Counted from the first letter of the stretch, positions 27,136 to 63,344 are shown. The stretch is DNA of 64,000 bases from Escherichia coli (GCF_016903815.1 NZ_CP069973.1), one strand, 5' to 3'. Made by a program: numbers and translations. Notes: a model not told the origin generated them from the sequence alone.

Positions 27136-27444
27136 TTATGTAAGCGTTATTTACTTAAGCGTGGATATATAAGAATGGTATTATCAATATGTTGCTCATG
27201 AGTTTTTAATAGCATATAGGCTTGTTAACATAGCCCAGCAATATAATTTGCAGTGGGAGCAGGTATGCATACAGAACAGTGGGCGAGGACGAGCGTCCCT
27301 TTTCGAACAAGGTAGCAAAAGAGGAAGAAGAAAGACAAATACAACTGGGCCTGAAAGGGTAGTGTTTAAGCCCCCTTTCAGGGGGCCGTGTCAAAGCCGC
27401 CCGCTATGCAGATGGTTTTTTACTTTATCTGTTAAGCAAAAAAA

Positions 27445-27474
27445 TGCCGCGATAAAGAAATTGTTATCGCGGCA
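27445..27474 (-). terminator. Rho-independent terminator ending the microcompartment operon
   Basis: 10-bp stem GCCGCGATAA/TTATCGCGGC followed by a T7 run on the minus strand. Confidence 0.65.
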
Positions 27475-27491
27475 GCGTCATAGCAATTTAC

Positions 27492-28037
27492 TTATTTTTT
27501 CTTGCCGCTGGAACGAGGACCTTTCTTTGCTGCCTCCTGCGGTACATCAGATTTTGTAGGTTTAGTGTTTTCTATTGAGGGTTTAACCGGTTGATGCTGC
27601 TCCATGGACTTCAGCGTTTCATCAGTGACATCCATACAGGATGCGCTGATTGACGTATCAAGGTTAACCACCGGGAATGTCTGTGAAGGCGCGTTTTCAG
27701 CCTGCAGTGTCGGTTGTGCAGCAGGCACTTCAGGTTGAGGTTCTGCGACGCCGGCGGTCACTTTAGAGTGAATAATCTGCTCGATATGCTGCGCGGTGCG
27801 GGCGATCACCTTATGGGCATACACCTCGCCAACCCGGCTTGCCGCGCTGATGGCTGCCGCTACCGCCGCGTTAATTGCGCCCACTTCCCCTTCCAGCTTC
27901 ACGGTCACCATCCCGCCGCCTTTCGTCAATTCATAGCCTACCAGACTAACGTTAGCGGATTTCATTGCGGCATCGGCGGCTTCTACCGCCGCAGACATCC
28001 CGACGGTTTCGATTAAGCCTAAACTTTTCCCAGACAT
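27492..28037 (-). CDS. BMC-H shell protein (PduA/EutM fold) with a long C-terminal extension (PduK-like)
   Basis: MSGKSLGLIETVGMSAAVEAADAAMKSANVSLVGYE... canonical BMC domain; start at internal Met with AGGAGA upstream. Confidence 0.85.
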   Translation of the reverse strand: MSGKSLGLIETVGMSAAVEAADAAMKSANVSLVGYELTKGGGMVTVKLEGEVGAINAAVAAAISAASRVGEVYAHKVIARTAQHIEQIIHSKVTAGVAEPQPEVPAAQPTLQAENAPSQTFPVVNLDTSISASCMDVTDETLKSMEQHQPVKPSIENTKPTKSDVPQEAAKKGPRSSGKKK

Positions 28038-28081
28038 AAATTTCTCCTGTAATAAATTCAACTGTGCTGCGCGTCGTCGGC

Positions 28082-29233
28082 TTAACGTCCAACGTCTTCG
28101 TATAATAGCGCCGCTTTGTCCGTAACTTCCCACGGAAAGCTGTCGCGACCAAAGTGACCATAGCAGGCTGTTTTACGATAGCGGGGGACCAGCAGATCAA
28201 GCGTAGTAATGATGCCGAACACGCTAAGATCGAAATGGCTGTTAACGCCTCTCAGCAACGCTTCAGATGACACTGTTTGTGTACCGAAGGTGTTAATCCT
28301 GACGGAAACAGGGCGGGGCAGGCCGATGGCCCATCCCAACTGGACTTCACAGCGTGAGGCAAGCCCAGCGGCGACGATGTTTTTCGCCACATAGCGAGCA
28401 GCGTAGGCGGCGGAACGATCGACTTTCGACGGATCTTTGCCTGAAAACGCGCCGCCGCCATGGCAAGCCGCGCCGCCATAGGTATCAACAATAATTTTAC
28501 GCCCCGTTAGCCCGCAGTCACCCACCGGCCCGCCAATCACAAAACTGCCTGCAGGGTTCACCAGAAAGCGGGTTTGTGGCGTGAGCCAGTGCGAAGGCAT
28601 CACAGGTTTAACAATTTCTTCGATGACCGCTTCCCGTAGCGCGTCCAGAGAAACGTCAGGGCTGTGTTGGGTAGACACCACAACGGTATCTACTGAATGA
28701 ACACGATTATCCTGATAGCGCAGGGTAACCTGGCTTTTGGCATCAGGGAGTAAAAATGGTAACCGTTGGGATTTACGCAACTGCGCCTGGCGCTCCATCA
28801 GACGATGGGCGTATACCAGCGTGGCGGGCATCAGTTCCGACGTTTCATCACAGGCGTAACCGAAGGTGATGCCCTGATCGCCCGCCCCCAGTTCTTCCAT
28901 CGAGTGGCCGCGAATGCCGTCAGCAATATTGGCGGACTGTTTGCCAAGGATATTTAATACACAGCAGGTATTGCCATCAAACCCCAATCGCGAATGGTCG
29001 TAACCAATCTCTTTTATGGTGTTGCGGACAATCTTCTCAATATCCACGGCGGCATGGGTAGATATTTCTCCGGCAACAATAGTGGCACCAGTTTTCACCA
29101 AGCATTCACAGGCAACCTTACCCCACGGGTCCTGTAGGAGTATCGCATCCAAAATGGCATCAGAAATTTGGTCCGCCATTTTATCGGGATGCCCTTCGGC
29201 AACGGATTCGGAGGTAAACAGGTAATCGTTCAA
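28082..29233 (-). CDS. S-adenosylmethionine synthetase (MetK paralog) embedded in the microcompartment locus
   Basis: [32 protein letters not shown]... and [19 protein letters not shown] motifs. Confidence 0.9.
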
Positions 29234-29361
29234 AGCGAGCCCACTTGTTTGGGAAGTTTATTCCTATCTTAGGATAGGAACCTGACAAGTGGGCGTAAAC
29301 TATCTTGCGGGCGTGTTGGACTATTTTGCTTTCATTATCGGGCCAATGCAAAATCACGCCA

Positions 29362-30417
29362 TCACCGTGTAATTCCCGGGGACACGACTTTTCGATAATC
29401 AGAGGGGGTCATGCCAGTATCTTTTTTGAAGATGCGGCAAAAATAGTTTGAATCCTGGTATGCCAGTTCCAGCGCAATGGTATTTACTTGTAAGTCACTG
29501 AACCGCAATAACGATTTGGCGATAGTAATTTTACGCGTGGCAATATAGTTCGAAAACCCGAACCCGGTAATTTTCTTAAAGGTACGGCTCAAATAGCAGG
29601 CACTGACAAACGATTTTGCTGCCACGTCATCGAGCGTCAAGTTTCTGAGAATATTTTTCTCAATATGGAATTTCGCTCGTTCGATAAAATCGATATTGCC
29701 TGTATAGCCTTTTAATGCGTAATCAAACAGTTCTTCGCTAATGGTCAGCAGGCTGATCATGATGCGGAAATAGCGGCTTTCCATCATGCCATACTGGTTG
29801 ATGTCTTTGATCAGCGCGGCGACTTTACGGTTAGTCGGCATTAACTTTTCCCCTTTGGCGGTCATATACTGGCTAACTATTTCCAGAAAATCGATCACGT
29901 CTTTGCGCTTATCCTCTTCTATCATATCCACCGGACAGGCACCGTTGATCGTGTCAAAAATAAAGTTGTGCCACTGGGTGTAATCGCAATCGTCTATCAT
30001 GGCGAACACTTTCTGTTTTAGGGCGCGGGATTTTTCATTTTCTCCTTCGTCGAATGCTAGGGTTTTTTTGATGGTGTCGGTCAAGATACATTTTTTCACT
30101 GGTTTGAGCAGATAATCATCCACTTTAAGGTTGTACATGCTGCGTACTATATCAAAGTCATCATTGGCCGTGATTACGATGATTTTAGTATCGCTGTTTT
30201 TTTTCTTCAGATATTCAATCACCTGTTTACCGTTCGGCAACGGAATATTAATATCCACTAAGATCATATTGATTTGACTCAGTTGGTCAATTAAGTGAAT
30301 CGCTTTTTTACCGGTTGAGGCTTCATGGATCGCAGCGTTTTCCACACACTGGGAGATAATCTGCCGCAGGGATTCTAATTCGATGGGCTCATCTTCAACG
30401 ATAACAATGGTAAACAT
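29362..30417 (-). CDS. Response regulator, REC domain plus AraC-type HTH output
   Basis: N-terminal receiver (IVIVEDEP ... LVDINIP) and C-terminal AraC HTH. Confidence 0.8.
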   Translation of the reverse strand: MFTIVIVEDEPIELESLRQIISQCVENAAIHEASTGKKAIHLIDQLSQINMILVDINIPLPNGKQVIEYLKKKNSDTKIIVITANDDFDIVRSMYNLKVDDYLLKPVKKCILTDTIKKTLAFDEGENEKSRALKQKVFAMIDDCDYTQWHNFIFDTINGACPVDMIEEDKRKDVIDFLEIVSQYMTAKGEKLMPTNRKVAALIKDINQYGMMESRYFRIMISLLTISEELFDYALKGYTGNIDFIERAKFHIEKNILRNLTLDDVAAKSFVSACYLSRTFKKITGFGFSNYIATRKITIAKSLLRFSDLQVNTIALELAYQDSNYFCRIFKKDTGMTPSDYRKVVSPGITR

Positions 30418-30433
30418 ATGTCTTTTTCCTGTA

Positions 30434-31696
30434 TCAGGCTTCCTGCATTGGGAACCGAAGTTTAATGGTTGTACCCATCCTGGGTTTGTTAGGGCTCATT
30501 ATTTCCAAGCCATAGCTCTCGCCAAATAACAACTTCAATCTATTTTTTATGTTGTTAATACCAATACTGCCTTTTTGCAATTTTTGGTCGCCTGATAAAA
30601 TGCGATTAATGGTATCTGGTGCGATGCCGTCGCCATTGTCAGTGACTTCAATAATCACGTTCAGGCCATCGTCCGTGGCACGGATCAGCAGATGACTATT
30701 GCTATCCCTTGGCTCCACTACGTAGTTAAAGAAGTTTTCCACCAGCGGTTGCAGGATCAAAAACGGGCAGACTACATCCAGATATTTTTCCGGGATATCG
30801 CACAGGTAATCGAAACGGTCTCTCATACGCACTTTTTGGATCGACATATAGTTGTTGACGTAATTTATTTCATTACGCAGAGTAATCAGGCCGTGACTAT
30901 TTTTACGTAACAAATAGCGCATCATGTCAGAGAAATCGTGCACCATTGTTTCGGTACGCTGCGCATCTTCAAGAAAAGCTAACCGGCCAATGGTATTTAA
31001 TACGTTAAATAAAAAGTGCGGATTTATCTGATAAGAGAGCGCTTTAAATTCAGCTTCATGTAGTGAGCGTTCTATCTCTACACGTTTTCTTAACTCATTA
31101 GCCAGTGCAAGATCCTTTTTACGAAGTTCGCGTTGGATATTATTGGTGTGCGCTTGTTCGACCAGATAAGACGATACGTGTAGTAACGTCGAGGCAGTAG
31201 ACTCAAAACGCTCATACGGCATGCGACGTGTATTCTGGTGCAAATTAATTAACCAAGGATTATCTTTCCAGACGTCATTATTATTCAGAATATAGGAAAT
31301 GCTCTGTTCTTTCTCTTCTTCGACTTTTACCTGACCGGAAATAAAAGCACCGAGATAATGATCGTTAATCATGATTGGGACAGCGAATTCGACAAAACCG
31401 CAGTGGCAGCGATAAACCACCGGTTTGCGAGCGTGCATCGCGGCACGGCCACCAGCGTTGTCGCTTTCATAACAGTGGTGCGCCAGTGTCGGGTTGAGAC
31501 GCGAACGCATGCAGAAGTCTGAAAAACCGCTGGGCTTAGTGACCGGGATACCATTCTCATCCACAACCACGAGCGCGATCATCATTGATTTTGAAAAGTT
31601 GTCCTGCAGGGTCTGAAGGCGTTTTACATCCAAAAACTCATTTAATTTGTATTTATTCTTCATACTTTCAGCCTGCATTTTTAAAAACATAATCAT
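30434..31696 (-). CDS. Sensor histidine kinase with PocR-like sensory domain; start may be a downstream Met (about 31663)
   Basis: His-kinase motifs ([13 protein letters not shown]) and HATPase region; N-terminal domain resembles PocR. Confidence 0.75.
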
Positions 31697-31965
31697 ATAT
31701 TTATAAATAATTTGTCACGAAAAAATTGAAATGGATCACAGCAACAAAAACAGCTCCGGCTCTGAAAGTAATGCTTCGGTTATTTGCAAGGGATACTCCT
31801 TTTCAAACCTTGCTGAACCAGTGCAGATACACAGGGAAACGTATACCAGAACTGCCACAATACAAACGCCAGTTACTGGCGATACGAATGGAATGACGAG
31901 GCAGTCTGTCAGAAAGCCCCACATGAACGATCACCACCTACATAGGAGGTGTTTTAAAATTGATC

Positions 31966-33769
31966 GAGTAGGAGGCGGGATCACTCCCGCCGTCCTCTCA
32001 CACCACCGTACGTGCGGTTCCGCATACGGCGGTTCATGTTAACTCTGGAACTGCCTCTACTGTTCCAGCAGTGATATCAGACCCTGCCTCCTGAACCATG
32101 CATTCTTTATCGCCTGATTCATATGGCTTGACCCTGAGTTCCACCATGGCCCGTGGTTGTTGTACGCAGAGATCATTGCCCTGTCCTTACTCAGTCCTGC
32201 TCTTTGCAGATTCTTTGCCCGGGTTCGCGGTCTCTTCCACTGCCGCTACAACAAGCAACGCAGTTTCCGTTTGATCCAGCCATCCAGCTCCTCCAGCACT
32301 CCTCTGACTTCCGTCAGCCTGAAGTAGCTTATCCATCCACACAGCACTGGTGTCAGAGCATTGATTGTCGCTTTCACTGATTTGCTCCGGTTTCCCGTCG
32401 TCAGACTGTGGACTTTCTCCTTCAGCCTGTTCACGCTCGTCAGGGCTATCTTCAGCTTCGCCTGTTTGTGCCATGTCACACTGTACCCGAGGAACTTCCG
32501 ATCCCACGGGCGCGCCACCGCGCTCTTCTTCTCATTCACCTTCAGTTTGTTCTCCACGAACGCCCTGATGTTCTTCAGCAGATGGTCGCCCGCTTTCCGG
32601 CTGCTTACGTAGATGTTGCAGTCGTCTGCGTAGCGGCAGAAGCTGTGTCCACGACGCTCTAGTTCTTTATCCAGTTCATCCAGCAGGATGTTCGACAGTA
32701 ACGGCGACAGTGGGCCGCCCTGCAGCATGCCCGCCTGCCGTTTCTCCCTTTGCCCGTCTTTAACCATTTCCACTTTCAGGTAGCGGCGTATCAGTCACAG
32801 CACCCGCCTGTCCTTTATCGTTCTGGCCAGACGCGTCATCAGGAGTCTGTGATCCACCCGGTCGAAGAACTTCTCCAGATCCATATCCACCACCCACCGT
32901 TTGCCACCCCGTATGTAACGCTGTGCCTGTTGCACCGCCTGCTGGATAAGCCTGTCCACCACCGTCGGGATGCCTGAGGTTCTCACGCCGCCATCCGGCT
33001 TCGGGATATCCATCCGGCGTATTGCCCGCGGCTGGTAGTTTCCGTCAATCAATGCCTGCCTGACGCTGCGCCAGTTCTTCTTCAGCCACGGTTTCAACTC
33101 CGCCACGCTGAGGTTATCCACCCCCGCCGTGCCTTTGTTTTCCAGCACGCGCTGATAAGCCAGCATCAGGTTTTCTCTCGTTATCACCGCTTCCATCGTC
33201 AGCGGCACTTCCGCTTTCGTTTGCCCACCCGCCGCCGTGCTGATTTCAGCGCCATCATGCAGCCCTGACGGATACTGTCCGTCTCCTCTGCCGCTGGTCG
33301 CAGTTGCCTGCGCTTGTGCTTCATTAATCATCATCGGGTTCGGATGTCCTAATCACAGTTAATCATGTTCGGCCCTTCATGCTGCCGGTTTTGCAGCACT
33401 ACTACGGCGTCGGCTGACTTCTGCCGCCCCATCCCGGCGCCTCACGGCGCCGGTAGCACACTGGCAGGGCGACAGATCTCCCGGGGTAATTCACGTGACT
33501 TTCCTGCTTATGCCTGTCGGCTTTACGTCACAGCGTTCCGTGTGAGTATCGGGCTTTGGTGATTTGTGCCACCTTACCCTGCTGCGCCGCCTTAACCGCT
33601 TCCTGTTCGTCAGGCCAGCATTTTGCATCCAGCTTCCTTCAGATTTCACCTCGCGATGAACACCCTTGCCTTCCGCTAACACTTCCCCTCACCGGGTGTG
33701 TGGAGGACTTTCACCTCTTAGTCGTTCTTCTGCCACCACAGTTGAAGAACAGCGCCAGTCACGGCGCAC
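31966..33769 (-). mobile_element. Degenerate group II intron (class C-like) inserted after a terminator hairpin
   Basis: 5' end GTGCGCC immediately after hairpin 33771..33810; domain V-like CCGTATGCGGAACCGCACGTACGG near 32000; disrupted RT ORF inside. Confidence 0.65.
32246..33334 (-). pseudogene. Group II intron reverse transcriptase, disrupted (in-frame stop, internal deletion, C-terminal truncation)
   Basis: Two abutting ORFs (179 and 175 aa) with RT motifs FCRYADDCNIY and GGPLSPLLSNILLDELD. Confidence 0.8.
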
Positions 33770-33770
33770 A

Positions 33771-33810
33771 TAACAAAAAGCCAGCAGGCAGACACTGCTG
33801 GCTTTTTGTT
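33771..33810 (-). terminator. Rho-independent terminator after the membrane-protein gene
   Basis: AAAAAGCCAGCAG...CTGCTGGCTTTTTGTT hairpin. Confidence 0.7.
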
Positions 33811-33819
33811 ATGGCGGGA

Positions 33820-34725
33820 TTAAAACAGGGGAACCAAGGTAAATAATCCAATGGTCGCCAACAGATTAATCATCGTGGTCATAATGGTGATGACCATCGC
33901 CGGCGGGTCAATATGTGTATCGCCGTGGATCAGGAAGATACGCGACATCAGTTCACCCAATATCGCGCAAATTATGCCAACGATAGCAGCCCAAATCAGG
34001 CTACCTGATGGCACCGCTACCAACGCGGCAGGCAGCGAAATATGATGTGACACCGGTACCTGAGTATTGAAATGCAGGAAAATCAGTGAGAACGCGGAAA
34101 TACCAAACGCCAGCAGCGCGCCGTTGCCGCCAAACTTCAGGCCTAAAAAGCCTGCCATCAAGCCAATACCCAAGCCCAGCACGGAAAGCTGCGGAATGCG
34201 GCTATGGTAAGGTATCCAGCACTTATCCTGCGGCGGATAGCAGTGACGAATTCCCTGCTCCGGTTTTCCAAACAGGCCAGTTTTACCGAAAACCAGACGC
34301 GAGACCACGCCAGAAATCACCACGGTTAGTGCCACGGTATCGGTCCAAGCATTGCCGGACGGGAAGGCCGGAATCTGGTTCAACCCCCAGGCGATGATGT
34401 AACCAACCGCCCCAAAAACCCCGCCTACCAGCAGCACATCGTAAGCCGCCAGACCGCTCAACCCGGCAGTGATATCACGCCCGGAACCCAGCTTGCCTTT
34501 CTTCGCTGCATACGCCGTCGCCGCAACCCCAGCGGCAAAGCCGCCGGTGTGCGGGCCAAACAGTCCAAACGGAAAAGTAATAAAGTCCGATGATGCTCCG
34601 GTAATAATTTGCACTACCGTCATGGCGATAACCAGAAGCCCAACGAATTCAAACGCCGCCAGCGCGCCAACAGCCGCACCAAATATGCCGCCGCCGAAGG
34701 CAACTACAATATCTAAGCTATTCAT
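33820..34725 (-). CDS. Integral membrane protein (putative substrate transporter of the locus)
   Basis: 301-aa highly hydrophobic, Gly/Ala-rich ORF. Confidence 0.6.
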   Translation of the reverse strand: MNSLDIVVAFGGGIFGAAVGALAAFEFVGLLVIAMTVVQIITGASSDFITFPFGLFGPHTGGFAAGVAATAYAAKKGKLGSGRDITAGLSGLAAYDVLLVGGVFGAVGYIIAWGLNQIPAFPSGNAWTDTVALTVVISGVVSRLVFGKTGLFGKPEQGIRHCYPPQDKCWIPYHSRIPQLSVLGLGIGLMAGFLGLKFGGNGALLAFGISAFSLIFLHFNTQVPVSHHISLPAALVAVPSGSLIWAAIVGIICAILGELMSRIFLIHGDTHIDPPAMVITIMTTMINLLATIGLFTLVPLF

Positions 34726-34861
34726 CTAGCTTACCTCTGTAATTAAATCAAATGACAATATAAGTAATGCAGATTGCTCTATATTTTTAAAATTGAAATA
34801 GTATTCATGCGTAACAAATAAACAAGTGCAGCATTTTTTCGCACTCTTATTACATCTTTTA

Positions 34862-35779
34862 TTAACCGCCGATATGGCAGTTAAAACCTAAGGATTCAAC
34901 CATTGCTTTTAACTCTGCCATTTGGGCTTCTTCGATACTTTTTGTATCGCCCATCGGATACTGGCGACCAAGCAGATTATATTTATTTTCACCGAAGCTG
35001 TGATAAGGCAATAAGTGAATGGTATCGACGTTCTGCATCAGGCGGGCGAACTCCGCAATATTATGGATTTCCTGCGAATTGTCATTCACTCCTGGGATCA
35101 CAGGAATACGCACAACCACTTTGGTTAAAAAGGAGATGCGCAGCAGATTCTCCAGAATCACTCTGTTATTCACGCCGGTGTTGCGCTCATGGATTTCCGG
35201 ATCGATGGCTTTAATATCGGTCAGAGCAAGATCGACATAGGGAAATACCTCATCAATCACCGCTTTGGTGGTGAAGCCGCTTGTTTCAATAGCGGTGTGC
35301 CAGCCTTTGGCTTTACAGGCTTTAAGCAACTCGCGGGCAAATTCCGGCTGCGCCAGCGGTTCACCACCGGACAGGGTAATCCCGCCGCCTGAACGCCGGT
35401 ATAAATTCTCTTCTTTTTCCAGTTCGCGCATCACTGCCGTTACCGACATACGCTTGCCCTTCATTTCCAGCGCACGGGTAGGGCAAATCTCAGTACATTT
35501 CCCACACTGAATACAGCGGTCGCGATTGATAAACCAGGCATTAGTAATGGAAAGAGCCTGTTGTGGGCAAGCATCAATACATTTTCCACAGCGGATGCAA
35601 TCATTCTTTTTAAATAATAACTCTGGGCTGTGACGTTGTGATTCAGGATTACTACACCATTTGCAGGACAGCGGGCAGCCTTTAAAAAAAGGAATGGTTC
35701 GAATGCCTGGACCATCATGCAAAGAATAGCGTTGAATATTAAATATGACGCCTTCGGTTTCGTATTCAACTTTATTCAT
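34862..35779 (-). CDS. Glycyl-radical enzyme activating enzyme (radical SAM, with ferredoxin-like insert)
   Basis: CPLSCKWCSNPE radical-SAM motif plus CIRCGKCIDACP and CIQCGKCTEICP clusters. Confidence 0.9.
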   Translation of the reverse strand: MNKVEYETEGVIFNIQRYSLHDGPGIRTIPFFKGCPLSCKWCSNPESQRHSPELLFKKNDCIRCGKCIDACPQQALSITNAWFINRDRCIQCGKCTEICPTRALEMKGKRMSVTAVMRELEKEENLYRRSGGGITLSGGEPLAQPEFARELLKACKAKGWHTAIETSGFTTKAVIDEVFPYVDLALTDIKAIDPEIHERNTGVNNRVILENLLRISFLTKVVVRIPVIPGVNDNSQEIHNIAEFARLMQNVDTIHLLPYHSFGENKYNLLGRQYPMGDTKSIEEAQMAELKAMVESLGFNCHIGG

Positions 35780-35887
35780 AACATCACTCTATATTTACCA
35801 GATGAATTACCTTTTCAGATAAAAGTAACAACCAGAAGTCGTGGAGAAAGTAACGGGCTATATATTGATACATAGCCCGTCTGGTAT

Positions 35888-38440: not shown

Positions 38441-38488
38441 ATAAAACTCCCGAATATATTTTGTTAACCTTGCGGAGATGCCAGGGTA

Positions 38489-39064
38489 TTAATGAATAAT
38501 GCTAGTGCCCATTTGAGTAATAAAGTGACGTAATATTGCTGGATGCCCCATCCAGGTAGTCGCGGTTATTAAATTACCATCCACAATGGCTTCATCATCT
38601 GCGGCAGTGACCCACTGGCCACCCGCCATTTCCACTTCCGGTTTTACCGTAAAATATCCCGTCAGTTTCCGGCCTTTTAATACCCCAGCAGCGGCCAGAA
38701 TTTGTGGGCCATGACAAATTGCAGCAACAGGTAATGTTAAATTCATCGCGTAATGCACGATATCCAATACTGACTTATTTAATCGCAAGTATTCCGATGA
38801 ACGCCCACCAGAAATATAAACACCACTATATTCCTGTAACCTTATGTCATCAAATGATGCAGTTAATCTAAAAAGATGTCCGGGTTTTTCGGTGTAGGTC
38901 TGATCACCTTCAAAATCATGAATCGCGGTTTTAATAAACTCGCCGGTACGTTTTCCCGGACACACTACATCCACTCTGAAACCTAACATGTTTAATGCCT
39001 GCCATGGCACCATGACTTCATAGTCTTCAGAGAAATCGCCTGTGATAAGTAATATCTTCTTCAT
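38489..39064 (-). CDS. DJ-1/PfpI-family protein
   Basis: Nucleophile-elbow motif AICHGPQIL; start at internal Met MKKILLITGD. Confidence 0.7.
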   Translation of the reverse strand: MKKILLITGDFSEDYEVMVPWQALNMLGFRVDVVCPGKRTGEFIKTAIHDFEGDQTYTEKPGHLFRLTASFDDIRLQEYSGVYISGGRSSEYLRLNKSVLDIVHYAMNLTLPVAAICHGPQILAAAGVLKGRKLTGYFTVKPEVEMAGGQWVTAADDEAIVDGNLITATTWMGHPAILRHFITQMGTSIIH

Positions 39065-39074
39065 AAGCGGACTC

Positions 39075-39374
39075 TCAAAACTGGTTATCGTCTTCCTCAA
39101 TGATTCGCATGGCTTCATGCACCGCCGCGACTTCGCCAAAAATGGCCAATGTGGTGATATGCTGAGGGCAACTGCCAAAGATTTCTGATACCACCACATT
39201 GGCGCTTTTACTGGCTACGTCGGCATAAAAATAGAGATCCGGAACCGGCAGTATTAACAAACCAATGGCGTCGATGCGAATCAAATCCAAACGCGAACGA
39301 AACTCCCCGGGCATACGCCGTTTCAACATAGCCAAAATATCCGGGGTCGGTGCGTTTATGATTCGTTTTTTCAT
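39075..39374 (-). CDS. EutS/PduU-type permuted BMC shell protein, GrpU-like, with GSCPQ motif
   Basis: Permuted BMC pattern similar to EutS; GxCPQ motif associated with Fe-S binding in GrpU. Confidence 0.7.
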   Translation of the reverse strand: MKKRIINAPTPDILAMLKRRMPGEFRSRLDLIRIDAIGLLILPVPDLYFYADVASKSANVVVSEIFGSCPQHITTLAIFGEVAAVHEAMRIIEEDDNQF

Positions 39375-39397
39375 CTTTAAGTCACCCTTCGCGATAG

Positions 39398-40915
39398 TTA
39401 GCGAATATTCAGCGCTTCAACCATTACACAGCGACGACGGCGTGCAAACGAACGCGCTGACGTAAGTCCCTCGCCGGTCGGTCCGGCAATCGTAAAGGTG
39501 GCATGCCCTTCACCGCCCACCCCCAGCCCTGCATAAGAGGGACCATTTTTAACAAAGATGGTGGTCTGGATCAGGCGCGCCATTTTGGTCAGCTTTTCGA
39601 CGTTGGTGGAGTGCATAACCGCGGTATGACGATTGCCGTGCTCCACTTTCACCGCCAGCTCAATGGCTTCATCAACATTGTCTACGCGCACCACCGGCAG
39701 GACCGGCATCATCAGCTCATGCACCACAAACGGATGTGTTTTCTCAGCCTCAATTAAGATGACTTTGATATCGTCGCCAACCTGGATTCCCAGTTGTTGC
39801 AGGATATAGCGCGCATCTTTGCCGACAAAGGCGGTATTCGGCCCAGTGCCTTTTTCATTAAGCACCAACGATTGCAGTTGTTGACTTAACTTCTTATCGC
39901 ACAACAGATAGGCACCGCTTTTCTTCATGCAGTGAATCAGATAGTCCGCTACCTGGTTCACAACAATCACCTCTTTTTCCGCCACGCACGGCAGGTTGTT
40001 GTCGAAGCTACAGCCCTTAATGATGTCGCGGGCTGCTTTTTCGATATCCGCCGTTTCATCTACCACAGCTGGCGGGTTACCTGCGCCTGCACCAATCGCT
40101 TTTTTACCTGATGACATCACGGTTTTCACGATGGCTGGACCGCCAGTCGCTACCAGCATGTTGATACGTGGGTCGTTGATCAGGACGTTGGTATTGTCGA
40201 TGGACGGTTTGGTCACCGTTACCACCATGTTAGCCGGTGCGCCCAACTGGGCAAGCTTGTTGTTGATCAGCTCAACCGCGTACAGCGACACTTTGCGCGA
40301 GCGCGGATGTGGACTGAACACCACAGTGTTGCCTGCCGCCAGCATGCCTATGCTGTTGTTGATAATGGTTTCGGTCGGGTTAGTCGTTGGTGTAATCGAA
40401 CCAATCACTCCGAACGCAGAGTATTCGATCAACGTTAAACCCCCGTCTCCGGAAACCGCGCTGGTGGTCAGATCTTCGATACCTGGCGTTTTCAGCGCTG
40501 CGACGCGGTTTTTGATCAGTTTGTCCTCGTAATTCCCCATGCCGGTCTCTTCCACCGCCATACGGGAAAGGGCACACAGCACATCTTCCTGCAGGAAGAC
40601 ATCGCGAATGCCATTGATAAACGAGGCGCGGTCTTGCATAGAACAGTGGCGATACTGCACTTGTGCCAAGACGGCGGCGGAAATCGCCTCATCCATGGTA
40701 TCGAATGCTCCAGTGCTAGCATTCGCTACCTTCGCTACCTGAGAGATCGCACTGGCGTCGCGCACGGAAGAGTGCTGCGCCAACGCCTTAGCGACAATTT
40801 CATCCAACCCGTCGACCCGCGCTGCTTCTGACGTGGCGGGAGCTTCATCCGGTGTTGCTTTGGTGAATTTGCTCAGAATGGTCGAGACAGCCTGAGCGAT
40901 TTCAATATCATTCAT
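39398..40915 (-). CDS. CoA-acylating aldehyde dehydrogenase (PduP/EutE family)
   Basis: 505-aa aldehyde dehydrogenase-like sequence with N-terminal extension typical of encapsulation peptides. Confidence 0.85.
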   Translation of the reverse strand: MNDIEIAQAVSTILSKFTKATPDEAPATSEAARVDGLDEIVAKALAQHSSVRDASAISQVAKVANASTGAFDTMDEAISAAVLAQVQYRHCSMQDRASFINGIRDVFLQEDVLCALSRMAVEETGMGNYEDKLIKNRVAALKTPGIEDLTTSAVSGDGGLTLIEYSAFGVIGSITPTTNPTETIINNSIGMLAAGNTVVFSPHPRSRKVSLYAVELINNKLAQLGAPANMVVTVTKPSIDNTNVLINDPRINMLVATGGPAIVKTVMSSGKKAIGAGAGNPPAVVDETADIEKAARDIIKGCSFDNNLPCVAEKEVIVVNQVADYLIHCMKKSGAYLLCDKKLSQQLQSLVLNEKGTGPNTAFVGKDARYILQQLGIQVGDDIKVILIEAEKTHPFVVHELMMPVLPVVRVDNVDEAIELAVKVEHGNRHTAVMHSTNVEKLTKMARLIQTTIFVKNGPSYAGLGVGGEGHATFTIAGPTGEGLTSARSFARRRRCVMVEALNIR

Positions 40916-40975
40916 CTTTAAATTCCTTACTACTCTTCATCTGCCGACCGCGCCGCGTGCATCGTCATCAGATGC

Positions 40976-41761
40976 TTAGATATATGGCGTCGTGGTGGAT
41001 TTAATTTCCACCGGATCTAACGTGGAGAGCAGTTGTAGACCGACTTCACGCGCGGCAATCACCGCCTGACGTACTGCACCGGAATCACCGGAGAAGGTGA
41101 AGATCACTTCGTTACTAAAGCTGGTGCCTTGCGACGGGCTGGCATAACCCACCGGGTCAATCACGGCGGATTTCGCCGCAGCGTCGGCAATCACCAGGCC
41201 AATCGCCGCAGGCGAGGCACAGGTCATCCCGAAGGATTTACCAATCGGCGCACCCAGCGCTTTATTCAGCGCGTAGCTGGCACGAGCGGTGTACTGGAAT
41301 TCAAGATGTCCGGCTGACGAGCCATAAACGTCACCCATGGTGCGTTCAATTTCAGACAGCGCCACTTCAACCGCACGCCTGACGTCGGAAACATCAGACG
41401 CACCGAAAATAATTAAGCAACCGTGTCCGCCACCTCCTTCGGTATCGCGGGCCAGCTCAATAGAAATAATTTCGCTGTTGGTTGCTTTAATCGCTTCGTC
41501 AGCCGCAAAAATTTGCGGGCCTGCGCCAGTACGTGCGCCAAGAATACCGATAGAGCGATATTTCTTGTCGATATTCATGACTTCATGCAATTGATTATCA
41601 ACATTGGCAATCACTAGGCCGATAGTGTGGCCCAACGCAGTGCCGACAAATTCCGTAATACCGCAACCAGCGAAATTCGCTGCTGTTTTAGCTTCCGGTG
41701 AGATATCGGTTTGTTTATTCATTACGTCAGATATAATCTGCTCAACAAGATTATCTCTCAT
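40976..41761 (-). CDS. Tandem-BMC-domain shell protein (BMC-T, PduB-like)
   Basis: 261-aa protein with PduB-like N-terminus MRDNLVEQIISDV. Confidence 0.75.
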   Translation of the reverse strand: MRDNLVEQIISDVMNKQTDISPEAKTAANFAGCGITEFVGTALGHTIGLVIANVDNQLHEVMNIDKKYRSIGILGARTGAGPQIFAADEAIKATNSEIISIELARDTEGGGGHGCLIIFGASDVSDVRRAVEVALSEIERTMGDVYGSSAGHLEFQYTARASYALNKALGAPIGKSFGMTCASPAAIGLVIADAAAKSAVIDPVGYASPSQGTSFSNEVIFTFSGDSGAVRQAVIAAREVGLQLLSTLDPVEIKSTTTPYI

Positions 41762-41782
41762 GATCAGTATCCTTTATTGTTA

Positions 41783-42064
41783 TTAACCGATAGCCTTCGG
41801 TAGAATTTTTTCCACCTCAATGTGTGGGCGTGGAATAACATGTACGGAGACCAGTTCTCCCACTTTACTCGCAGCAGCGGAGCCCGCATCTGTCGCGGCT
41901 TTCACTGCGCCAACGTCGCCGCGAACCATCACAGTCACCAAGCCGGAGCCGATTTTTTCATAACCCACTAGGGTCACGTTGGCAGATTTCACCATGGTAT
42001 CTGCAGCTTCAATTGCAGAAACCAGACCTTTCGTTTCAACCATTCCTAATGCTTCTTGTTGCAT
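41783..42064 (-). CDS. BMC-H shell protein (PduA/PduJ-like)
   Basis: [45 protein letters not shown] canonical BMC domain; start at internal Met. Confidence 0.9.
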
Positions 42065-42348
42065 AACGACCTCAATATTTCCGATAGAAAGAAAACGTGC
42101 ACAGAGGAATAGCAATCTACGGATTCACCCATGTGCATTAATTATTTAATTATCATAATGCTAAGGTTATTCAGACAAAATGTTTTGCGCGTCAGTGGGA
42201 CTATCTTGCTTTTGCATTCCCGCAATTGACAATAAAATCCACCCGAGGTTTGTAATAAAAGATCTGCGTTTAAACTTCCTTGCAAAATAGCCCCGCTCTG
42301 AATAGCGATCATAATTACTGTTAAAACTGTCGTATTTTTGCCAATTAG

Positions 42349-43545
42349 TTATGCCGTGCGGGCAATCTCCGCTGCATCTATAGCAATCATTTTTTCTTCA
42401 TTGGTTGGGATGACCGCAATCTTCGTGGTGTCGGTTTTAGAAATCAGTCCGCTACGTCCGCCGAACAGCTGCTGGTTACGTTCTTTATCCAGTTCCAATC
42501 CCAGCGCCTGAAGGCGTTGCACGGTAAGTTCTCGAATTAACGCCGAGTTTTCGCCAATTCCACCGGTGAAAATCAGCGCATCGAAGCGTTTAAGCGAGGT
42601 CACGTGGCCGCCGATATGTCGTGCGAGACGATGTACTAACACGTCGATGGCTAACGCTGCCCGTTCGTGGCCCTCATCACGCGCCTGCTGAAGGGTGCGG
42701 CAATCGCTGGATAAGCCGGAAATCCCCATTAGGCCGGACTGGTTATTGAGCATTTTGTACAGCGTGTCGAATGTTTGACCTGTGCGTTTCGCCAGATATG
42801 CGACGACACCAAAATCAAGATCCCCGCAGCGCGTGCCCATTACCAGCCCTTCCAGCGGGGTCATACCCATTGAGGTGTCAATGCTCGTGCCGTTTTGCAC
42901 CGCACATAGCGATGAACCGTTGCCCAAGTGGGCAATCACGATGCCATGATCCGCCGGGTCGAGATCTAGTGATGCAAGCGCTTCTGCGGCAATATAGCGG
43001 TGAGATGTTCCGTGAAAGCCGTAACGTCGCACCATATAATCTTGCTGGAACTCCAGCGGGATCGCATAGGTGTAAGCAGCCGGAGACAAGGTCTGGTGGA
43101 ACGCAGTATCGAACACCGCAATATGCGGCAACGCGGGCAACAGAGCCCGAGCCGCTTCAATACCAATCAGGTTGGCAGGGTTATGCAAAGGGGCCAGCAC
43201 CGACAGCGCGCGGACTTTTTCGATCACATCATCGGTAACCAGTACTGATCTTTTGAAGTCGCTGCCGCCATGAGCCACGCGGTGCCCAACGGCGTTGATG
43301 GCTTCCAACAGTTGCTGTTCGTCGAGCTTCGCGAAGAGCACTTTGAGCGCATGCTGATGGCTGGCGTCATCCAGCGCGACAGTGGATTTATGGCCGTCTC
43401 GGTCTTTAAACGTTATGACAGCATGATCAATACCCAGTCGTTCCGCTAGGCCCGACAGCAACGGCTGATCTGCATCCTGAGGAATGACGGAGAATTTCAT
43501 TGATGAGGAACCACAATTAATCACTAATACACAAGCTAAAGACAT
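42349..43545 (-). CDS. Acetate/propionate kinase (AckA/PduW family)
   Basis: VLVINCGSSSMKFSV N-terminal motif; start codon at 43543..43545. Confidence 0.85.
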   Translation of the reverse strand: MSLACVLVINCGSSSMKFSVIPQDADQPLLSGLAERLGIDHAVITFKDRDGHKSTVALDDASHQHALKVLFAKLDEQQLLEAINAVGHRVAHGGSDFKRSVLVTDDVIEKVRALSVLAPLHNPANLIGIEAARALLPALPHIAVFDTAFHQTLSPAAYTYAIPLEFQQDYMVRRYGFHGTSHRYIAAEALASLDLDPADHGIVIAHLGNGSSLCAVQNGTSIDTSMGMTPLEGLVMGTRCGDLDFGVVAYLAKRTGQTFDTLYKMLNNQSGLMGISGLSSDCRTLQQARDEGHERAALAIDVLVHRLARHIGGHVTSLKRFDALIFTGGIGENSALIRELTVQRLQALGLELDKERNQQLFGGRSGLISKTDTTKIAVIPTNEEKMIAIDAAEIARTA

Positions 43546-43573
43546 GATGCCCCCTGAAATGGACTGCAAAAAA

Positions 43574-44071
43574 TTAACGGGTTGTTGTGAGGGGATAACG
43601 CAGAACGCTAAACTGCGCCATCGCCTGGCGGGCGATGAGCATATCTTCCTCAACACTGCCGCCGCTGATGCCGATGCCGCCTAGTAAGCGCCTGCCCGAC
43701 CAGCAGGGAAAACCACCGCCGAAGCAGCAGATATCTTTTTCTTTCTCAAGGCCGTACAAATCACCACCCGGCTGTACCAGCGTTGCCAGTTCGTGAGTTG
43801 GCATTTTGAGAGCTACCGCGGTCCAGGCCTTTTGTGGTGCCAAGGTATGGCTGACCAGCAGGGCGTTATCCATGCTGAAGAAAAAACGCTGCTGACCGCA
43901 GGCATCCACTAGGCTAAAAACGATCGATACATTGCTGGACTGTGCCATTTCCCGGGCCAACTTTGCCAGCAGTTCACTGTCCTCCAGGCTCAGCGACATC
44001 CGGAGTTCCGGTAACTGCGTGGCAATAGCCTCATTAATCCAGTTGTCGAGTGAAGCCTCATTCGCAGACAT
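43574..44071 (-). CDS. GlcG/HbpS-like (DUF336, PduO C-terminal domain-like) protein
   Basis: 165-aa ORF with GGIGISGG motif. Confidence 0.6.
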   Translation of the reverse strand: MSANEASLDNWINEAIATQLPELRMSLSLEDSELLAKLAREMAQSSNVSIVFSLVDACGQQRFFFSMDNALLVSHTLAPQKAWTAVALKMPTHELATLVQPGGDLYGLEKEKDICCFGGGFPCWSGRRLLGGIGISGGSVEEDMLIARQAMAQFSVLRYPLTTTR

Positions 44072-44098
44072 AAGTATTCCTCAGCGTACGCGCCGCTA

Positions 44099-44368
44099 TT
44101 AACCGTTAAGTTCGAGCGTGTCGACGATACCCACCACGGCAGCGTCAATCACCGAGTGATCTTTGTTGTTGCTCATACGCGCCGAACTGCCGGTGGTGAT
44201 GATCACAATCTCTCCATTGCCCGCGCCGACAGTATCAACTGCCACCTGGGCATGGACAGTCGGCTGATAGTTTTCATCGAGCCGCGCCACTATCAGCAGT
44301 TTTGAGCCATTCAGCGAGGCGTGTTTGGTGGTGGAAACCAATGCGCCAGTAACTTTAGCGAGGTACAT
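44099..44368 (-). CDS. BMC vertex protein (BMC-P, EutN/PduN/CcmL family)
   Basis: MYLAKVTGALVSTTKHASLNGSKLLIV... matches the EutN/PduN pattern. Confidence 0.85.
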   Translation of the reverse strand: MYLAKVTGALVSTTKHASLNGSKLLIVARLDENYQPTVHAQVAVDTVGAGNGEIVIITTGSSARMSNNKDHSVIDAAVVGIVDTLELNG

Positions 44369-44379
44369 ATTTCCTCCGG

Positions 44380-45105
44380 TTAACCATGGATAACAGTGAG
44401 ATTACGCCGCTGGATTTCATCTCTGGCAGCAGGGGTAATCAGCGTGTCGCTCTCAATGCGCAGCACTGTGCCAATGGTCAGTAGGCGGATATCGCTCTGG
44501 GTGATTAAACGTTTTTTACCGGCTACTGTCAGGGTGGATTGGCTTCCTTGCACCGACTTGACATGGGCTGCACGTTTACCGAAAAGCGTAATGCCATAGC
44601 TCTCTAGGACCTGAGCGTAACCTTCCAGACAAGACAGCAGTGGCATCGGTAATTCGCTATCGACGCATTGTTGATGCAGCGTGGCGATAATCTGTTTACG
44701 GTGCTGTAACGCCTGAAATACAGTTTCACAGGCCAGATTATCGCGAATGCCCAGCGCAATTTTGCTCATGCTGTTGACAGAGAGCGCAGGCAGATAGAGC
44801 ACCTCATAGTGAGGCGGCGATCTGTCAAATCCAGCACGAGAACCACGCTGAATTAGCGCATCCATGCAGACAGATTTCAGCGCCGACTGGCTGGCGCTGT
44901 GAGAAAAATTTACCCACAACTGATAGCCCGCCAGCTCAAGCGCCTCAAGGCAGTTCAGCGTTTCCGGCAGCGAGGAGATATCCTCACCAGTCACCACTAC
45001 GCAGACATTTTTCTGCGCGACGGATTGTGCCAACACTTCAGCGATGACCCGGTCCAGCAGTTGCGATAAGGTTTGATTGTCCATTGATTTACCCCTGGTC
45101 CGCAT
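44380..45105 (-). CDS. Microcompartment-locus protein of unrecognised family (241 aa); alternative start at 45084
   Basis: ORF inside the operon between the eutJ-like and vertex genes; no motif recognised. Confidence 0.55.
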   Translation of the reverse strand: MRTRGKSMDNQTLSQLLDRVIAEVLAQSVAQKNVCVVVTGEDISSLPETLNCLEALELAGYQLWVNFSHSASQSALKSVCMDALIQRGSRAGFDRSPPHYEVLYLPALSVNSMSKIALGIRDNLACETVFQALQHRKQIIATLHQQCVDSELPMPLLSCLEGYAQVLESYGITLFGKRAAHVKSVQGSQSTLTVAGKKRLITQSDIRLLTIGTVLRIESDTLITPAARDEIQRRNLTVIHG

Positions 45106-45909
45106 TCATGGCGATGCCTAATGGTGTGACCAATAGTGGCTCTGCCGAAGGAATCACATTTTTACCGGTTTGTTTACTGAACACGTTGGCAAACTGGCTG
45201 AAGCTGCTCGCGCCACCTACCAAATAAATATTTTTTACCTGCTGGGTAGCGAACCATCCCGACACCAAGCTGGCCATTTTCTGGGCCACCGGTAGCACCA
45301 GGGTAAAGACCTGCGCTTCCTGCCCGTTTTTTTTCATTTCTTCCGCCTCGGCATAAGGCAAGCCCAGCGCGCCAGCGATCACCAACTTCATATGGCTTCC
45401 ACCGGTGGGCTCATCGGCACTGAACGTCACTTTACCGCTTTTCAAAATGCTCATGCCGGTGGTGCCTCCTCCGACATCCACCACCGCCCCGTTTTTAATA
45501 TTCAGCGCGCTGGCAGCGGCTACCGGTTCATCTAGTACTTGGGTCACGATAAAACCCGCCAACTCCACTACGTTGACGATCACTTTTGTGTTGCCTTCAG
45601 AGATCCCCGGTGGGACTGCGATCGCCGCGCGCTCCAGCGTGCAGCCCTGTTTCTGTTCAAGAATTTGTTTGAGACGTGCTACTACCCGGCTGGCGGTCAG
45701 GTAATCCACCACCACGCCGTCTTTCACCACATTGGAGGGATACATTACCCCTGCCACCGGCTGGTTATCTTCATCCAGCACCACGATTGCGATATTGGCG
45801 GTACCGAGATCCCCCCCACCTTCAACGCGCCGGAGTAGGGCCGACATTCGCCGCTGTCAATCAGCGCGGCCAATTCGTGAAATCGGCAGTTTTCGGGGCT
45901 GTTAGCCAT
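45089..45909 (-). CDS. EutJ-like actin-fold (Hsp70-type) protein with an apparent frameshift at a 7-nt C run (45811..45817)
   Basis: ORF from 45847 starts at the DLGT phosphate-binding motif; an ATG at 45909 in another frame encodes ...ALKVGG, which would precede DLGT after a 1-nt shift. Confidence 0.6.
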
Positions 45910-46588
45910 GGCGCGCAGCCTGTTTTATGCCGCGAACGGTATCGCCATTACGCAGACCGACGCCGTTAGCTTCTTCCATATCAATATGCAGTTCCAGCAC
46001 TGCATCCGCCGTGACGCGTACCACTACATGGCTGAGCACACCACCGCGCGGACCGTTTGTTTGCACATCGATTTCCATTCCGTCATGCAGGCCGTGCAAT
46101 TCGGCTTCTTCGGGCGAGATATGGATATGGCGCCAGGCGACAATCATGCCGTTGTGTTTCACCACCCGCCCTTTCGGACCGATGATTTCAATGCCCGGCG
46201 AATCCAGCAGATCCCCCGACATGCGCACCGGAGCTTTAGTGCCCAGCGCAAAGCCGTCGGCCACAGAGATTTCCACCTGCGTGGCATTACGCAGTGGCCC
46301 TAACACGCGCACTTTGTTGAGCTCGCCTTTTGGCCCGCGCAGCGTCACCATCTCTTCGGCGGCATACTGACCGGGCTGTTTCAACGCTTTAGAACGGGTT
46401 AGCGTAGAGCCGTAGCCAAACAGAATGTCCATATCTTCACGGCACAGATGAACATGGCGGTTGGACACGCCCACCGGAATATTCAGCGCGACGGGCGCGG
46501 CAGCAGGCGCTGCCGTTTTTTTACTGGTGGCAAGTTCCTGCAAAATTTGTTGGGTAATCCACTCGGCTTGTTGTTCGGTGTAATTCAT
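45902..46588 (-). CDS. Phosphotransacylase, PduL type
   Basis: GVSNRHVHL ... ALKQPGQYAAEE ... AWRHIHISPEEA motifs. Confidence 0.85.
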   Translation of the reverse strand: MNYTEQQAEWITQQILQELATSKKTAAPAAAPVALNIPVGVSNRHVHLCREDMDILFGYGSTLTRSKALKQPGQYAAEEMVTLRGPKGELNKVRVLGPLRNATQVEISVADGFALGTKAPVRMSGDLLDSPGIEIIGPKGRVVKHNGMIVAWRHIHISPEEAELHGLHDGMEIDVQTNGPRGGVLSHVVVRVTADAVLELHIDMEEANGVGLRNGDTVRGIKQAARHG

Positions 46589-46727
46589 AATGGGTACGAC
46601 CTGATTATTGGGTTATCTTATGGGTAATGGGCGTCTAACGATCAGGATAGGGAGTAACGACGCCCGGTTTTTGTTTATCAGCAGGACTTTTTTGACTGCT
46701 TCACGGAGGCTGAACAAAGTTATCCAG

Positions 46728-47846
46728 CTAGCCGGTAATCAGGTCGATCAACCCTTCGACATCATGCGTCGTCACCTGCCGCGGGTTCGACGCGGTACAA
46801 CCGTCGGCCAGCGTCGAATTCACCAGTGCGCTGCGCAACTCGATGATTTTTGCACGGTCGATACCCAGTTCGCTGAGAGTGACGGGGATGCAGAAATGGC
46901 GATTGATCTGGCGGATCTCCTGAGTCATCAGCGCGATGGCCTGCTCCGGTACCGCATGGTCAATGCCTATGATTTGCGCGCAACGGTGATAGCGATCGCG
47001 GGTTTCAGTGCTGGCCCGTTTGCTGTTGAAGTCGATGACAATCGGCAGCAGCATGGCGTTAATTTTGCCATGAGGAATATGCAGCATCCCGCCGATGGCG
47101 TGTGCCATGCCGTGTACCAACCCCAGCCCGGCGGAGTTAAATGCCATGCCTGCCATACAGGAGGCATTGTGCATGTGGGTGCGCGCCGCAATGTCTTTTT
47201 CGTCGTTAAACACCTGCGGCAGATAGCGCCAGGTCAACGCGATGGCTTTTTCCGCCAGCGCATCGCTAAAGTCATTTGAGCCAGTAGAGACAAAGGCTTC
47301 AATGGCATGGGTCAGCACGTCCATGCCGGTATCTACCGCGACATGACGCGGCGCGGTTAACACTAGGTTAGGATCGAGAATGGCGATTTCCGGCACCAGT
47401 TGCCCGGAGATCAACGGATATTTGCGGCCATTTTGCGGATCAGAGATGATCGCGTAGGACGTCACTTCAGAGCCGGATCCGCTGGTTGTGGGAATAGCAA
47501 TGAGATCGATTTGATGATCTCCAAAATACTCTTCCAATGTGACTTTAATTCCTTTCGCAGCGTCCAGCGACGAGCCGCCGCCGAGGGCGATAATAACGTC
47601 GGGCTTAAAGGCTTTAAAACGCGCCGCGCCGGAAGTCAGAATATCAATATCTGGATCCGGAGTAACCTCGCCGAAAATGCATACCGATGCCTCAGGCATA
47701 TGGCTTATTAAATAACGAGTTTTACCTGATGACATCATAAAATCATCGGTGACAATACCGACTCGTTTATTATTAAATTGGCATAGAGAGGTTATTGCCT
47801 CTTCACCAAAATAAATTTTGGGGCACGAAAAATAATAGCGGGCCAT
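46728..47846 (-). CDS. Iron-containing alcohol dehydrogenase (PduQ/EutG-like), first gene of the operon
   Basis: GGGSSLDAAK and His-rich metal site (HGMAHAIGGMLHIPHG). Confidence 0.85.
   Translation of the reverse strand: MARYYFSCPKIYFGEEAITSLCQFNNKRVGIVTDDFMMSSGKTRYLISHMPEASVCIFGEVTPDPDIDILTSGAARFKAFKPDVIIALGGGSSLDAAKGIKVTLEEYFGDHQIDLIAIPTTSGSGSEVTSYAIISDPQNGRKYPLISGQLVPEIAILDPNLVLTAPRHVAVDTGMDVLTHAIEAFVSTGSNDFSDALAEKAIALTWRYLPQVFNDEKDIAARTHMHNASCMAGMAFNSAGLGLVHGMAHAIGGMLHIPHGKINAMLLPIVIDFNSKRASTETRDRYHRCAQIIGIDHAVPEQAIALMTQEIRQINRHFCIPVTLSELGIDRAKIIELRSALVNSTLADGCTASNPRQVTTHDVEGLIDLITG

Positions 47847-60604: not shown

Positions 60605-63344
<2,740 letters not shown>

Follow-up and report, generated by a model that had tools for sequence, protein, structure and literature searches.

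The grp locus of an Escherichia coli genomic island: an intact GRM3-type propanediol microcompartment system with a regulatory block inverted relative to related loci

The 64,000-nucleotide stretch of an Escherichia coli genome analyzed here (GCF_016903815.1 NZ_CP069973.1; hereafter the window) carries, at positions 27445–47846, what is almost certainly the known grp locus of extraintestinal pathogenic E. coli, which encodes a glycyl radical enzyme-associated microcompartment (GRM) of type 3 for the vitamin B12-independent fermentation of 1,2-propanediol. Gene content, intactness, near-identity to the locus of strain CFT073, active-site residues and locus type are established by the comparisons below; the physiological role and the induction of the genes would follow from the literature on CFT073 and close orthologues, and, as far as sequence can tell, nothing in the window speaks against this assignment. 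A first-pass annotation of the window had called the system probably not new. This agrees with its earlier characterization in CFT073 and with the presence of all of its genes, under their names, in RefSeq; the locus is known down to its gene names and the window adds no new system. What it does add, a minor gain, is an intact locus in this strain and a regulatory block that is inverted and has a dead intron at the junction.

Nineteen intact genes, grpA to grpS, fill the locus on the minus strand (Table 1). Coordinate 47846 corresponds to the start codon of grpA, and coordinate 27445 is the final base of the intrinsic terminator 3' of grpS (27474–27445). None of the 19 open reading frames contains an internal stop, and their lengths equal those of the CFT073 counterparts. 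Many complete E. coli chromosomes match the stretch from 27000 to 48500 at 100% identity, including that of strain 222, whose RefSeq annotation names all 19 genes from grpA to grpS and places two unnamed reverse-transcriptase fragments between grpO and grpP. All genes listed by the first-pass annotation were found on the minus strand and in the order given, each call being confirmed by family searches; the list had passed over grpD and a 1.8-kb decayed group II intron.

The grp locus of CFT073 (4306029–4326385) matches that of the window in its 19 genes, their order and their orientation, and the two strains share 99.2% DNA identity over 26.9 kb (window 23115–49997). Of the 19 proteins, 12 have the same sequence in both strains, among them GrpM, PduL, the aldehyde dehydrogenase, the kinase and the majority of the shell proteins, and six others show one or two substitutions. 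In GrpH, the remaining protein, the sole difference is a frameshift in the CFT073 RefSeq record (11811–12094 of the retrieved segment L004), where two extra single bases are present and the gene is annotated accordingly; the window copy is intact, and the CFT073 difference could be an old sequencing error or real. A decaying, non-working relic of a mosaic island would be in keeping with surroundings rich in pseudogenes and insertion sequence (IS) remnants, with the dead intron within the locus, and with frameshifted grp genes in other strains (grpQ in strain 98228, grpH in the CFT073 record). However, all 19 genes in the window are full length and carry at most two substitutions per protein relative to CFT073 (grpH apart), the intron sits in a spacer and interrupts no gene, and CFT073, whose locus works according to the literature, has this decayed intron in its grpO–grpP spacer as well. 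We consider a relic very unlikely.

The name grp, for glycyl radical propanediol, was given to the CFT073 cluster (Lundin et al. 2020, J Bacteriol 202:e00017-20). According to papers citing this work, genetics showed conversion of 1,2-propanediol to propionate and 1-propanol inside a microcompartment, with GrpP/GrpQ-dependent expression. Anaerobic growth on 1,2-propanediol and polyhedral bodies are likewise reported for CFT073, whose GrpM is identical to that of the window. The earlier remark that the substrate of the enzyme was only inferred is consequently out of date, as CFT073 genetics are joined by biochemistry and structures of close orthologues.

Locus type was assigned from the enzymatic core, the shell and the ancillary genes. 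The glycyl radical enzyme GrpM (PFL-like and Gly_radical domains) adjoins its radical S-adenosylmethionine (radical-SAM) activase GrpN, the pairing that marks a GRM, and the metabolosome core is present as the acylating aldehyde dehydrogenase GrpJ, the phosphotransacylase GrpB and the alcohol dehydrogenase GrpA. The shell comprises bacterial microcompartment (BMC) proteins of the H (GrpH, GrpS), T (GrpI) and P (GrpE) types together with GrpK of the GrpU type. Axen 2014 listed as GRM3 ancillaries an acetate kinase along with a peptidase, a flavoprotein, a EutJ homologue, a SAM synthetase, a two-component pair and a DUF336 protein; the set is complete here in GrpG, GrpL, GrpD, GrpC, GrpR, GrpP/GrpQ and GrpF. 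GrpM belongs to the propanediol-dehydratase clade and carries an internal insertion (~60 residues in the GRM3 definition) and not an N-terminal peptide. In Ferlez 2019, subtype GRM3b is defined by locus arrangement and phylogeny of the glycyl radical enzyme, with GrpU in 53 of 55 loci and PduS/PduT mostly absent; the presence of GrpU and the lack of a PduS or PduT homologue among the 19 genes are in keeping with GRM3b. The GrpU family is marked by a divergent BMC-domain protein of ~100 residues with a conserved G-x-C-P-Q loop, and GrpK matches 4olp over its full length and also 4olo, a GSCPQH/GSCPQN stretch being kept in all three sequences. Homologous GRMs in pathogenic E. coli had been noted by Zarzycki 2017. 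The GRM3/grp-like identity proposed in the first-pass annotation is thus upheld by the RefSeq names, the DNA identity to CFT073 and the complete ancillary set, and the comparison with CFT073 and Rhodopseudomonas that it called for returned an architecture matching the described GRM3 type.

The best PDB match of GrpM (1662 bits) is 9rco, the GRM3 1,2-propanediol dehydratase of Raoultella planticola, which was crystallized without its encapsulation peptide and whose active site is occupied by 1,2-propanediol or ethylene glycol; identity to this orthologue is 89–90%, as estimated from the alignment. Next come the glycerol dehydratase of Clostridium butyricum (1r8w, 1063 bits) and the propanediol dehydratase of Roseburia inulinivorans (5i2a, 964 bits), with CutC, HypD and the remaining PDB structures below 600 bits. 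Family models agree: GrpM falls short of the cutoffs for CutC (TIGR04394, 555 bits vs. 1050) and HypD (NF043068, 608 bits vs. 1100) and lies below the curated cutoffs for sulfopropanediol dehydratases. Residues H164, S282, C433, E435, D447 and the radical-bearing G825 are conserved (GrpM numbering, obtained by mapping the positions of glycerol dehydratase onto GrpM). Comparison of the active site with the dehydratases, CutC and HypD, which had been suggested as a check, yielded residues of the propanediol type and not those of another class of glycyl radical enzyme. An insertion of ~55 residues (594–648) is absent from glycerol dehydratase and was removed in the 9rco construct. Internal encapsulation peptides have been described for the glycyl radical enzymes of GRM3, GRM4 and GRM5, and judged by its sequence the insertion corresponds to this published intramolecular peptide.

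If GrpM were a glycerol dehydratase, the compartment would handle the conversion of glycerol to 3-hydroxypropionaldehyde, and the higher score against the C. butyricum enzyme than against the R. inulinivorans enzyme is what such a reading would lead one to expect. Yet GrpM has F339 and V704, as do both solved propanediol dehydratases, in place of Tyr339 and Ser642 of glycerol dehydratase; the Rhodopseudomonas palustris orthologue gave no product from glycerol; and the CFT073 locus is reported to serve in the degradation of 1,2-propanediol. We regard glycerol as a highly improbable substrate, and 1,2-propanediol is supported by the CFT073 genetics and by the biochemistry and structures of close orthologues. 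The residues at positions 339 and 704 are said to replace the contacts to the C3-hydroxyl of glycerol by a hydrophobic pocket. Some points weigh against our overall assignment of the locus. The specificity role of positions 339 and 704, reportedly described in LaMattina 2016, is supported here by alignments, and a search of two other papers for residue-level statements yielded none. Compared over its full length, GrpM is nearer to the glycerol enzyme than to the propanediol dehydratase of R. inulinivorans, so that the substrate call rests on few residues and on orthologues. In addition, GrpP/GrpQ are reported to respond to another signal, D-serine, and to have another target, fimS, as discussed below.

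Taken as a propanediol system, the locus would operate as follows. GrpN would generate the glycyl radical at Gly825 of GrpM, and the S-adenosylmethionine for this step can come from GrpR. Through Cys433 and Glu435, GrpM would then dehydrate 1,2-propanediol to propionaldehyde inside a shell presumably built from GrpH, GrpI, GrpE, GrpK and the tailed BMC-H protein GrpS, into which it is probably packaged by its internal insertion of ~55 residues. GrpJ would convert propionaldehyde to propionyl-CoA, and part of the propionaldehyde would be reduced to 1-propanol by GrpA, recycling NAD+. GrpB would pass propionyl-CoA on to propionyl phosphate, with recycling of CoA, from which GrpG would yield propionate and ATP. 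Expression would be turned on by the PocR-domain kinase GrpP together with the AraC-output regulator GrpQ. Roles for GrpC, GrpD, GrpF, GrpL and GrpO are putative.

PocR-type two-component control, as first annotated, is borne out by the domain content: GrpP combines PocR, His_kinase and HATPase_c domains, and GrpQ joins a receiver to an AraC-type output. A 2025 study found that GrpP/GrpQ respond to D-serine, that GrpQ binds fimS directly and that bladder invasion is promoted; grpP/grpQ occurred in 87 of 307 genomes (28%) of uropathogenic E. coli (UPEC) and in no commensal or gut-pathogenic genome of its set. From this D-serine-dependent activation, fimS binding and enrichment in UPEC one could argue that selection in uropathogens acts chiefly on a regulatory function, with GrpP/GrpQ sensing urinary D-serine and switching on type 1 fimbriae and the metabolic genes carried as secondary cargo. 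A regulatory role is compatible with a metabolic one, however, and the metabolic and shell genes are all intact and almost invariant. The same regulator pair also accompanies GRM3 loci in the non-pathogens Rhodopseudomonas and Mixta. The 29-bp GrpQ footprint from fimS has no match upstream of the grp genes: the best sites upstream of grpA, grpH and grpP reach 13–16 of 29 positions, no better than the background in the window, where the maximum is 19 of 29 and 100 sites reach at least 16. The two regulatory targets are therefore not linkable by sequence. We hold a mainly regulatory function to be unlikely and retain propanediol fermentation as the role of the locus.

The claim that the twenty kilobases form one operon held with respect to the strand, all genes being co-directional. 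Strong terminator hairpins follow both grpO and grpS, for which reason grpA–O and grpPQRS probably represent at least two transcription units. A scan for promoter-like sequences remained at shuffle level (24 found vs. 22.4 expected). The hairpin behind grpO (T1) has an A-tract on the side opposite its T-run, and 5 nt past this hairpin and T-run, at 33769, the group II intron begins with GTGCG; it ends at 31963. Rfam models locate domains D1–D4 at 33372–33660 and D5/D6 at 31963–32034. An intact reference copy in strain M6 measures 1.9 kb and encodes a protein of 462 aa, relative to which the window intron is missing 29 codons from the reverse-transcriptase domain as well as two other codons and carries two nonsense codons. 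Class C introns insert a few bases downstream of Rho-independent terminator hairpins; three of three independent copies of this intron start with GTGCG 4–6 nt past a strong hairpin and T-run, and the ribozyme domains together with the insertion site behind a terminator hairpin point to class C (IIC) for this element. Leclercq and Cordaux 2012 described a single inactivated intron, E.c.I6, in CFT073, ED1a, S88 and APEC_O1, at an orthologous site in a genomic island found at different chromosomal loci, and the window intron is very probably E.c.I6.

In spread samples of 1380 matching records the intron was common to every E. coli grp locus, including that of CFT073, and no intron-free or un-inverted E. 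coli grp locus was encountered. Records of ~33% coverage represent intron-only copies elsewhere, and a class with 75% coverage (H59) shares the layout and differs slightly in length near the 3' end of the intron. Five loci outside E. coli with close GrpO homologues (76–91% identity; L009, L011, L012, L015 and L016) were retrieved for comparison. In all five, grpS-R-Q-P are encoded on the other strand and run towards grpO across a spacer of 85–130 bp without an intron, whereas in E. coli grpPQRS are co-directional with grpA–O, and the intron and one repeat arm lie between grpO and this block. The Atlantibacter locus is co-linear with the window from its fetched start within grpD through grpO and its terminator to 33775, and homology restarts in inverted orientation, running from 31754 to 27631. 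Its grpO–grpS spacer contains two hairpins, the first homologous to T1 and the second to T2, the terminator behind grpS. Just past T2 of the window, at 27393–27426, lies a decayed copy of the grpO-terminator hairpin, whose similarity was matched in one of 2000 shuffles; this is the position expected if both hairpins once adjoined, as they do in Atlantibacter.

Inverted repeats of ~150 nt (24356–24519 and 31756–31906; ~84% identical, 7.2 kb apart) bracket grpP–grpS, a TetR gene, an RND pseudogene and an IS remnant, and the inner edge of the repeat coincides with the homology breakpoint at 31754. Most simply, the arrangement in E. coli would be the product of an inversion between the two repeats that followed the arrival of foreign DNA and the intron 3' of the grpO terminator. 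The fuller sequence of events, with a convergent ancestor, landing of the intron, a repeat-mediated flip to the single-strand layout and possible positive feedback on grpPQ specific to E. coli, is doubtful as a whole and is offered tentatively. If it holds and read-through from grpO feeds grpPQ, the inversion would have created an E. coli-specific positive feedback, and it could bear on how GrpP/GrpQ came to control type 1 fimbriae in uropathogens. The inverted regulatory block in E. coli may be undescribed. Separately, each arm of the inverted repeat contains a small terminator-like hairpin.

At least 80% of the 27000–48500 stretch occurs in one place in 456 of 5426 complete E. coli genomes. 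Judged from sequence, about one in 12 sequenced E. coli would ferment 1,2-propanediol without vitamin B12 by way of the grp locus, with the breakdown of fucose and rhamnose as the source of propanediol. In strain 98228 (L008, NZ_CP173464.1; comparison covering 43 kb of the record) the grp genes and flanking island genes lie in the same layout on a 64.9-kb circular 'plasmid' contig, which may reflect excision of the island or an artefact of assembly; grpQ is frameshifted in this strain.

Table 1. Features of the grp locus in the window, with coordinates counted from its first base.
Feature	Position	Strand	Evidence
grpA, iron-containing alcohol dehydrogenase	46728..47846	-	Fe-ADH family matches; RefSeq name; identical to CFT073 GrpA
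grpB, PduL-type phosphotransacylase	45902..46588	-	NF011652 phosphate propanoyltransferase, 257 bits vs. cutoff 209
grpC, EutJ-family actin/Hsp70-fold protein	45089..45847	-	TIGR02529 EutJ, 384 bits
grpD, flavoprotein-fold protein	44380..45105	-	weak: Pfam PF02441, E 6e-6, residues 33-142; weak TIGR02536 match
grpE, BMC-P pentameric vertex protein	44099..44368	-	CcmL/EutN family matches
grpF, HbpS-like (formerly DUF336) protein	43574..44071	-	Pfam PF03928, E 4e-30
grpG, propionate/acetate kinase	42349..43545	-	NF009045 propionate kinase, 694 bits vs. cutoff 580
grpH, BMC-H hexameric shell protein, intact	41783..42064	-	EutM/CsoS1-type matches
grpI, PduB-type BMC-T tandem-domain shell protein	40976..41761	-	NF011944 PduB, 423 bits
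grpJ, CoA-acylating propionaldehyde dehydrogenase	39398..40915	-	NF011927, 732 bits; identical to CFT073 GrpJ
grpK, GrpU-type shell protein	39075..39374	-	PDB 4olp, E 1.4e-48; divergent BMC domain
grpL, DJ-1/PfpI family protein	38489..39064	-	TIGR01382, 153 bits
grpM, glycyl radical enzyme, PFL2/glycerol-dehydratase family	35888..38440	-	TIGR01774, 788 bits vs. cutoff 678
grpM, Cys433 codon	37142..37144	-	
grpM, putative encapsulation-peptide insertion (residues ~594-648)	36497..36661	-	
grpM, Gly825 codon	35966..35968	-	
grpN, radical-SAM activating enzyme	34862..35779	-	TIGR02494, 414 bits
grpO, polytopic membrane protein, DUF7973 (PF25928)	33820..34725	-	family via annotation of homologues
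T1, hairpin and T-run terminator directly 3' of grpO	33770..33812	-	fold energy -26.6 kcal/mol
Decayed group II intron, probably E.c.I6	31963..33769	-	Rfam domains; grpO-grpP spacer, same orientation as operon
Left arm of ~150-nt inverted repeat	31756..31906	.	partner 24356-24519, ~84% identity
grpP, cytoplasmic PocR-domain histidine kinase	30434..31696	-	Pfam PocR 20-182, His_kinase 215-295, HATPase_c 313-418
grpQ, response regulator, AraC-type helix-turn-helix output	29362..30417	-	receiver matches residues 1-127; AraC-family matches 243-345
grpR, methionine adenosyltransferase (MetK paralogue), TTG start	28082..29233	-	TIGR01034, 588 bits
grpS, BMC-H shell protein with ~100-residue low-complexity C-terminal tail	27492..28037	-	Pfam BMC, residues 5-80 of 181
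T2, intrinsic terminator 3' of grpS	27445..27474	-	11-bp stem and T7

Several products carry further distinguishing traits. GrpB has an N-terminal extension of ~36 residues, its NF011652 match beginning at residue 37, and the translation of grpN shows a CX3CX2C motif and two ferredoxin-like Cys clusters. The family match of GrpD is weak; the position of its gene is conserved in related loci. GrpO had no family match in the Pfam and NCBIfam copies searched, PF25928 being seen only through precomputed annotation of its homologues, all of which carry it and which are located in GRM3-type loci of Atlantibacter, Mixta and R. palustris. GrpO carries a permease label although DUF7973 has no known function, and a lone DUF7973 copy was observed outside any microcompartment locus in Serratia microhaemolytica (L013).

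At its left edge the window begins with the core genes cadB (19–711, cut by the window end) and cadC (1076–2614), both on the minus strand, which mark the border of an island; the remainder is a mosaic with toxin-antitoxin, antirestriction, IS and type VI secretion system remnants. The flanks outside 23115–49997 are unlike those of CFT073, where the module lies in another chromosomal context. The 64-kb window contains no tRNA gene, and a 3' remnant of pheU, which would mark the attachment site, had no match in it at up to three mismatches. Inverted copies of a transposase remnant (24541–24891 and 53024–53374; 351 bp, 96% identical) flank grp at a distance of ~28 kb from each other. A second, different group II intron on the plus strand (61276–62874) encodes an intact 502-aa reverse transcriptase/maturase and lies between IS3-family transposase fragments; going by where it is inserted, and by that only, it is similar to E.c.I4, an intron that targets IS3-like elements. 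Elsewhere in the island, a small catabolic module at ~16.9–21.2 kb consists of a nucleoside transporter, a sugar kinase, a pseudouridine kinase and a pseudouridine-5'-phosphate glycosidase, and at 56124–57979 a PAPS-reductase-like and an IbrB-like gene form a pair that is followed by a PerC-family regulator. Relative to strain 222 the window lacks 18 bases somewhere between 15018 and 27000 and shows no other difference, and at ~11000–13000 the G+C content falls to 0.33, the minimum of the window.

Among loci outside E. coli, those of Atlantibacter hermannii, Mixta tenebrionis and three other Enterobacterales assemblies share the content and order of grpD–grpO with the window, Atlantibacter at 81–86% DNA identity; in two of the five (L011 and L012) grpL has no called counterpart. 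The GRM3 locus of R. palustris BisB18 (Zarzycki et al. 2017) has in common with grp a glycyl radical enzyme with internal encapsulation peptide, an activase, an aldehyde dehydrogenase, PduL, a kinase, MetK, a PocR kinase with an AraC regulator, and HbpS-like, EutJ and DUF7973 membrane proteins. Its gene order differs from that of grp, with the DUF7973 gene converging on the other genes and the kinase and regulators placed within the main string, and its GrpO homologue is only 56% identical to GrpO. The glycerol dehydratase of C. butyricum, the second-best PDB match, has the same fold and the same catalytic Gly, Cys and Glu as GrpM but lacks the insertion of ~55 residues and any microcompartment association, and has Tyr339/Ser642 where GrpM has Phe and Val. 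The Pdu system of Salmonella enterica acts on the same substrate and resembles grp in the pathway that follows (aldehyde dehydrogenase, PduL, propionate kinase and alcohol dehydrogenase) and in its shell proteins of the PduA/PduB/PduN types, whereas its dehydratase is the B12-dependent PduCDE and that of grp is a glycyl radical enzyme requiring strict anaerobiosis.

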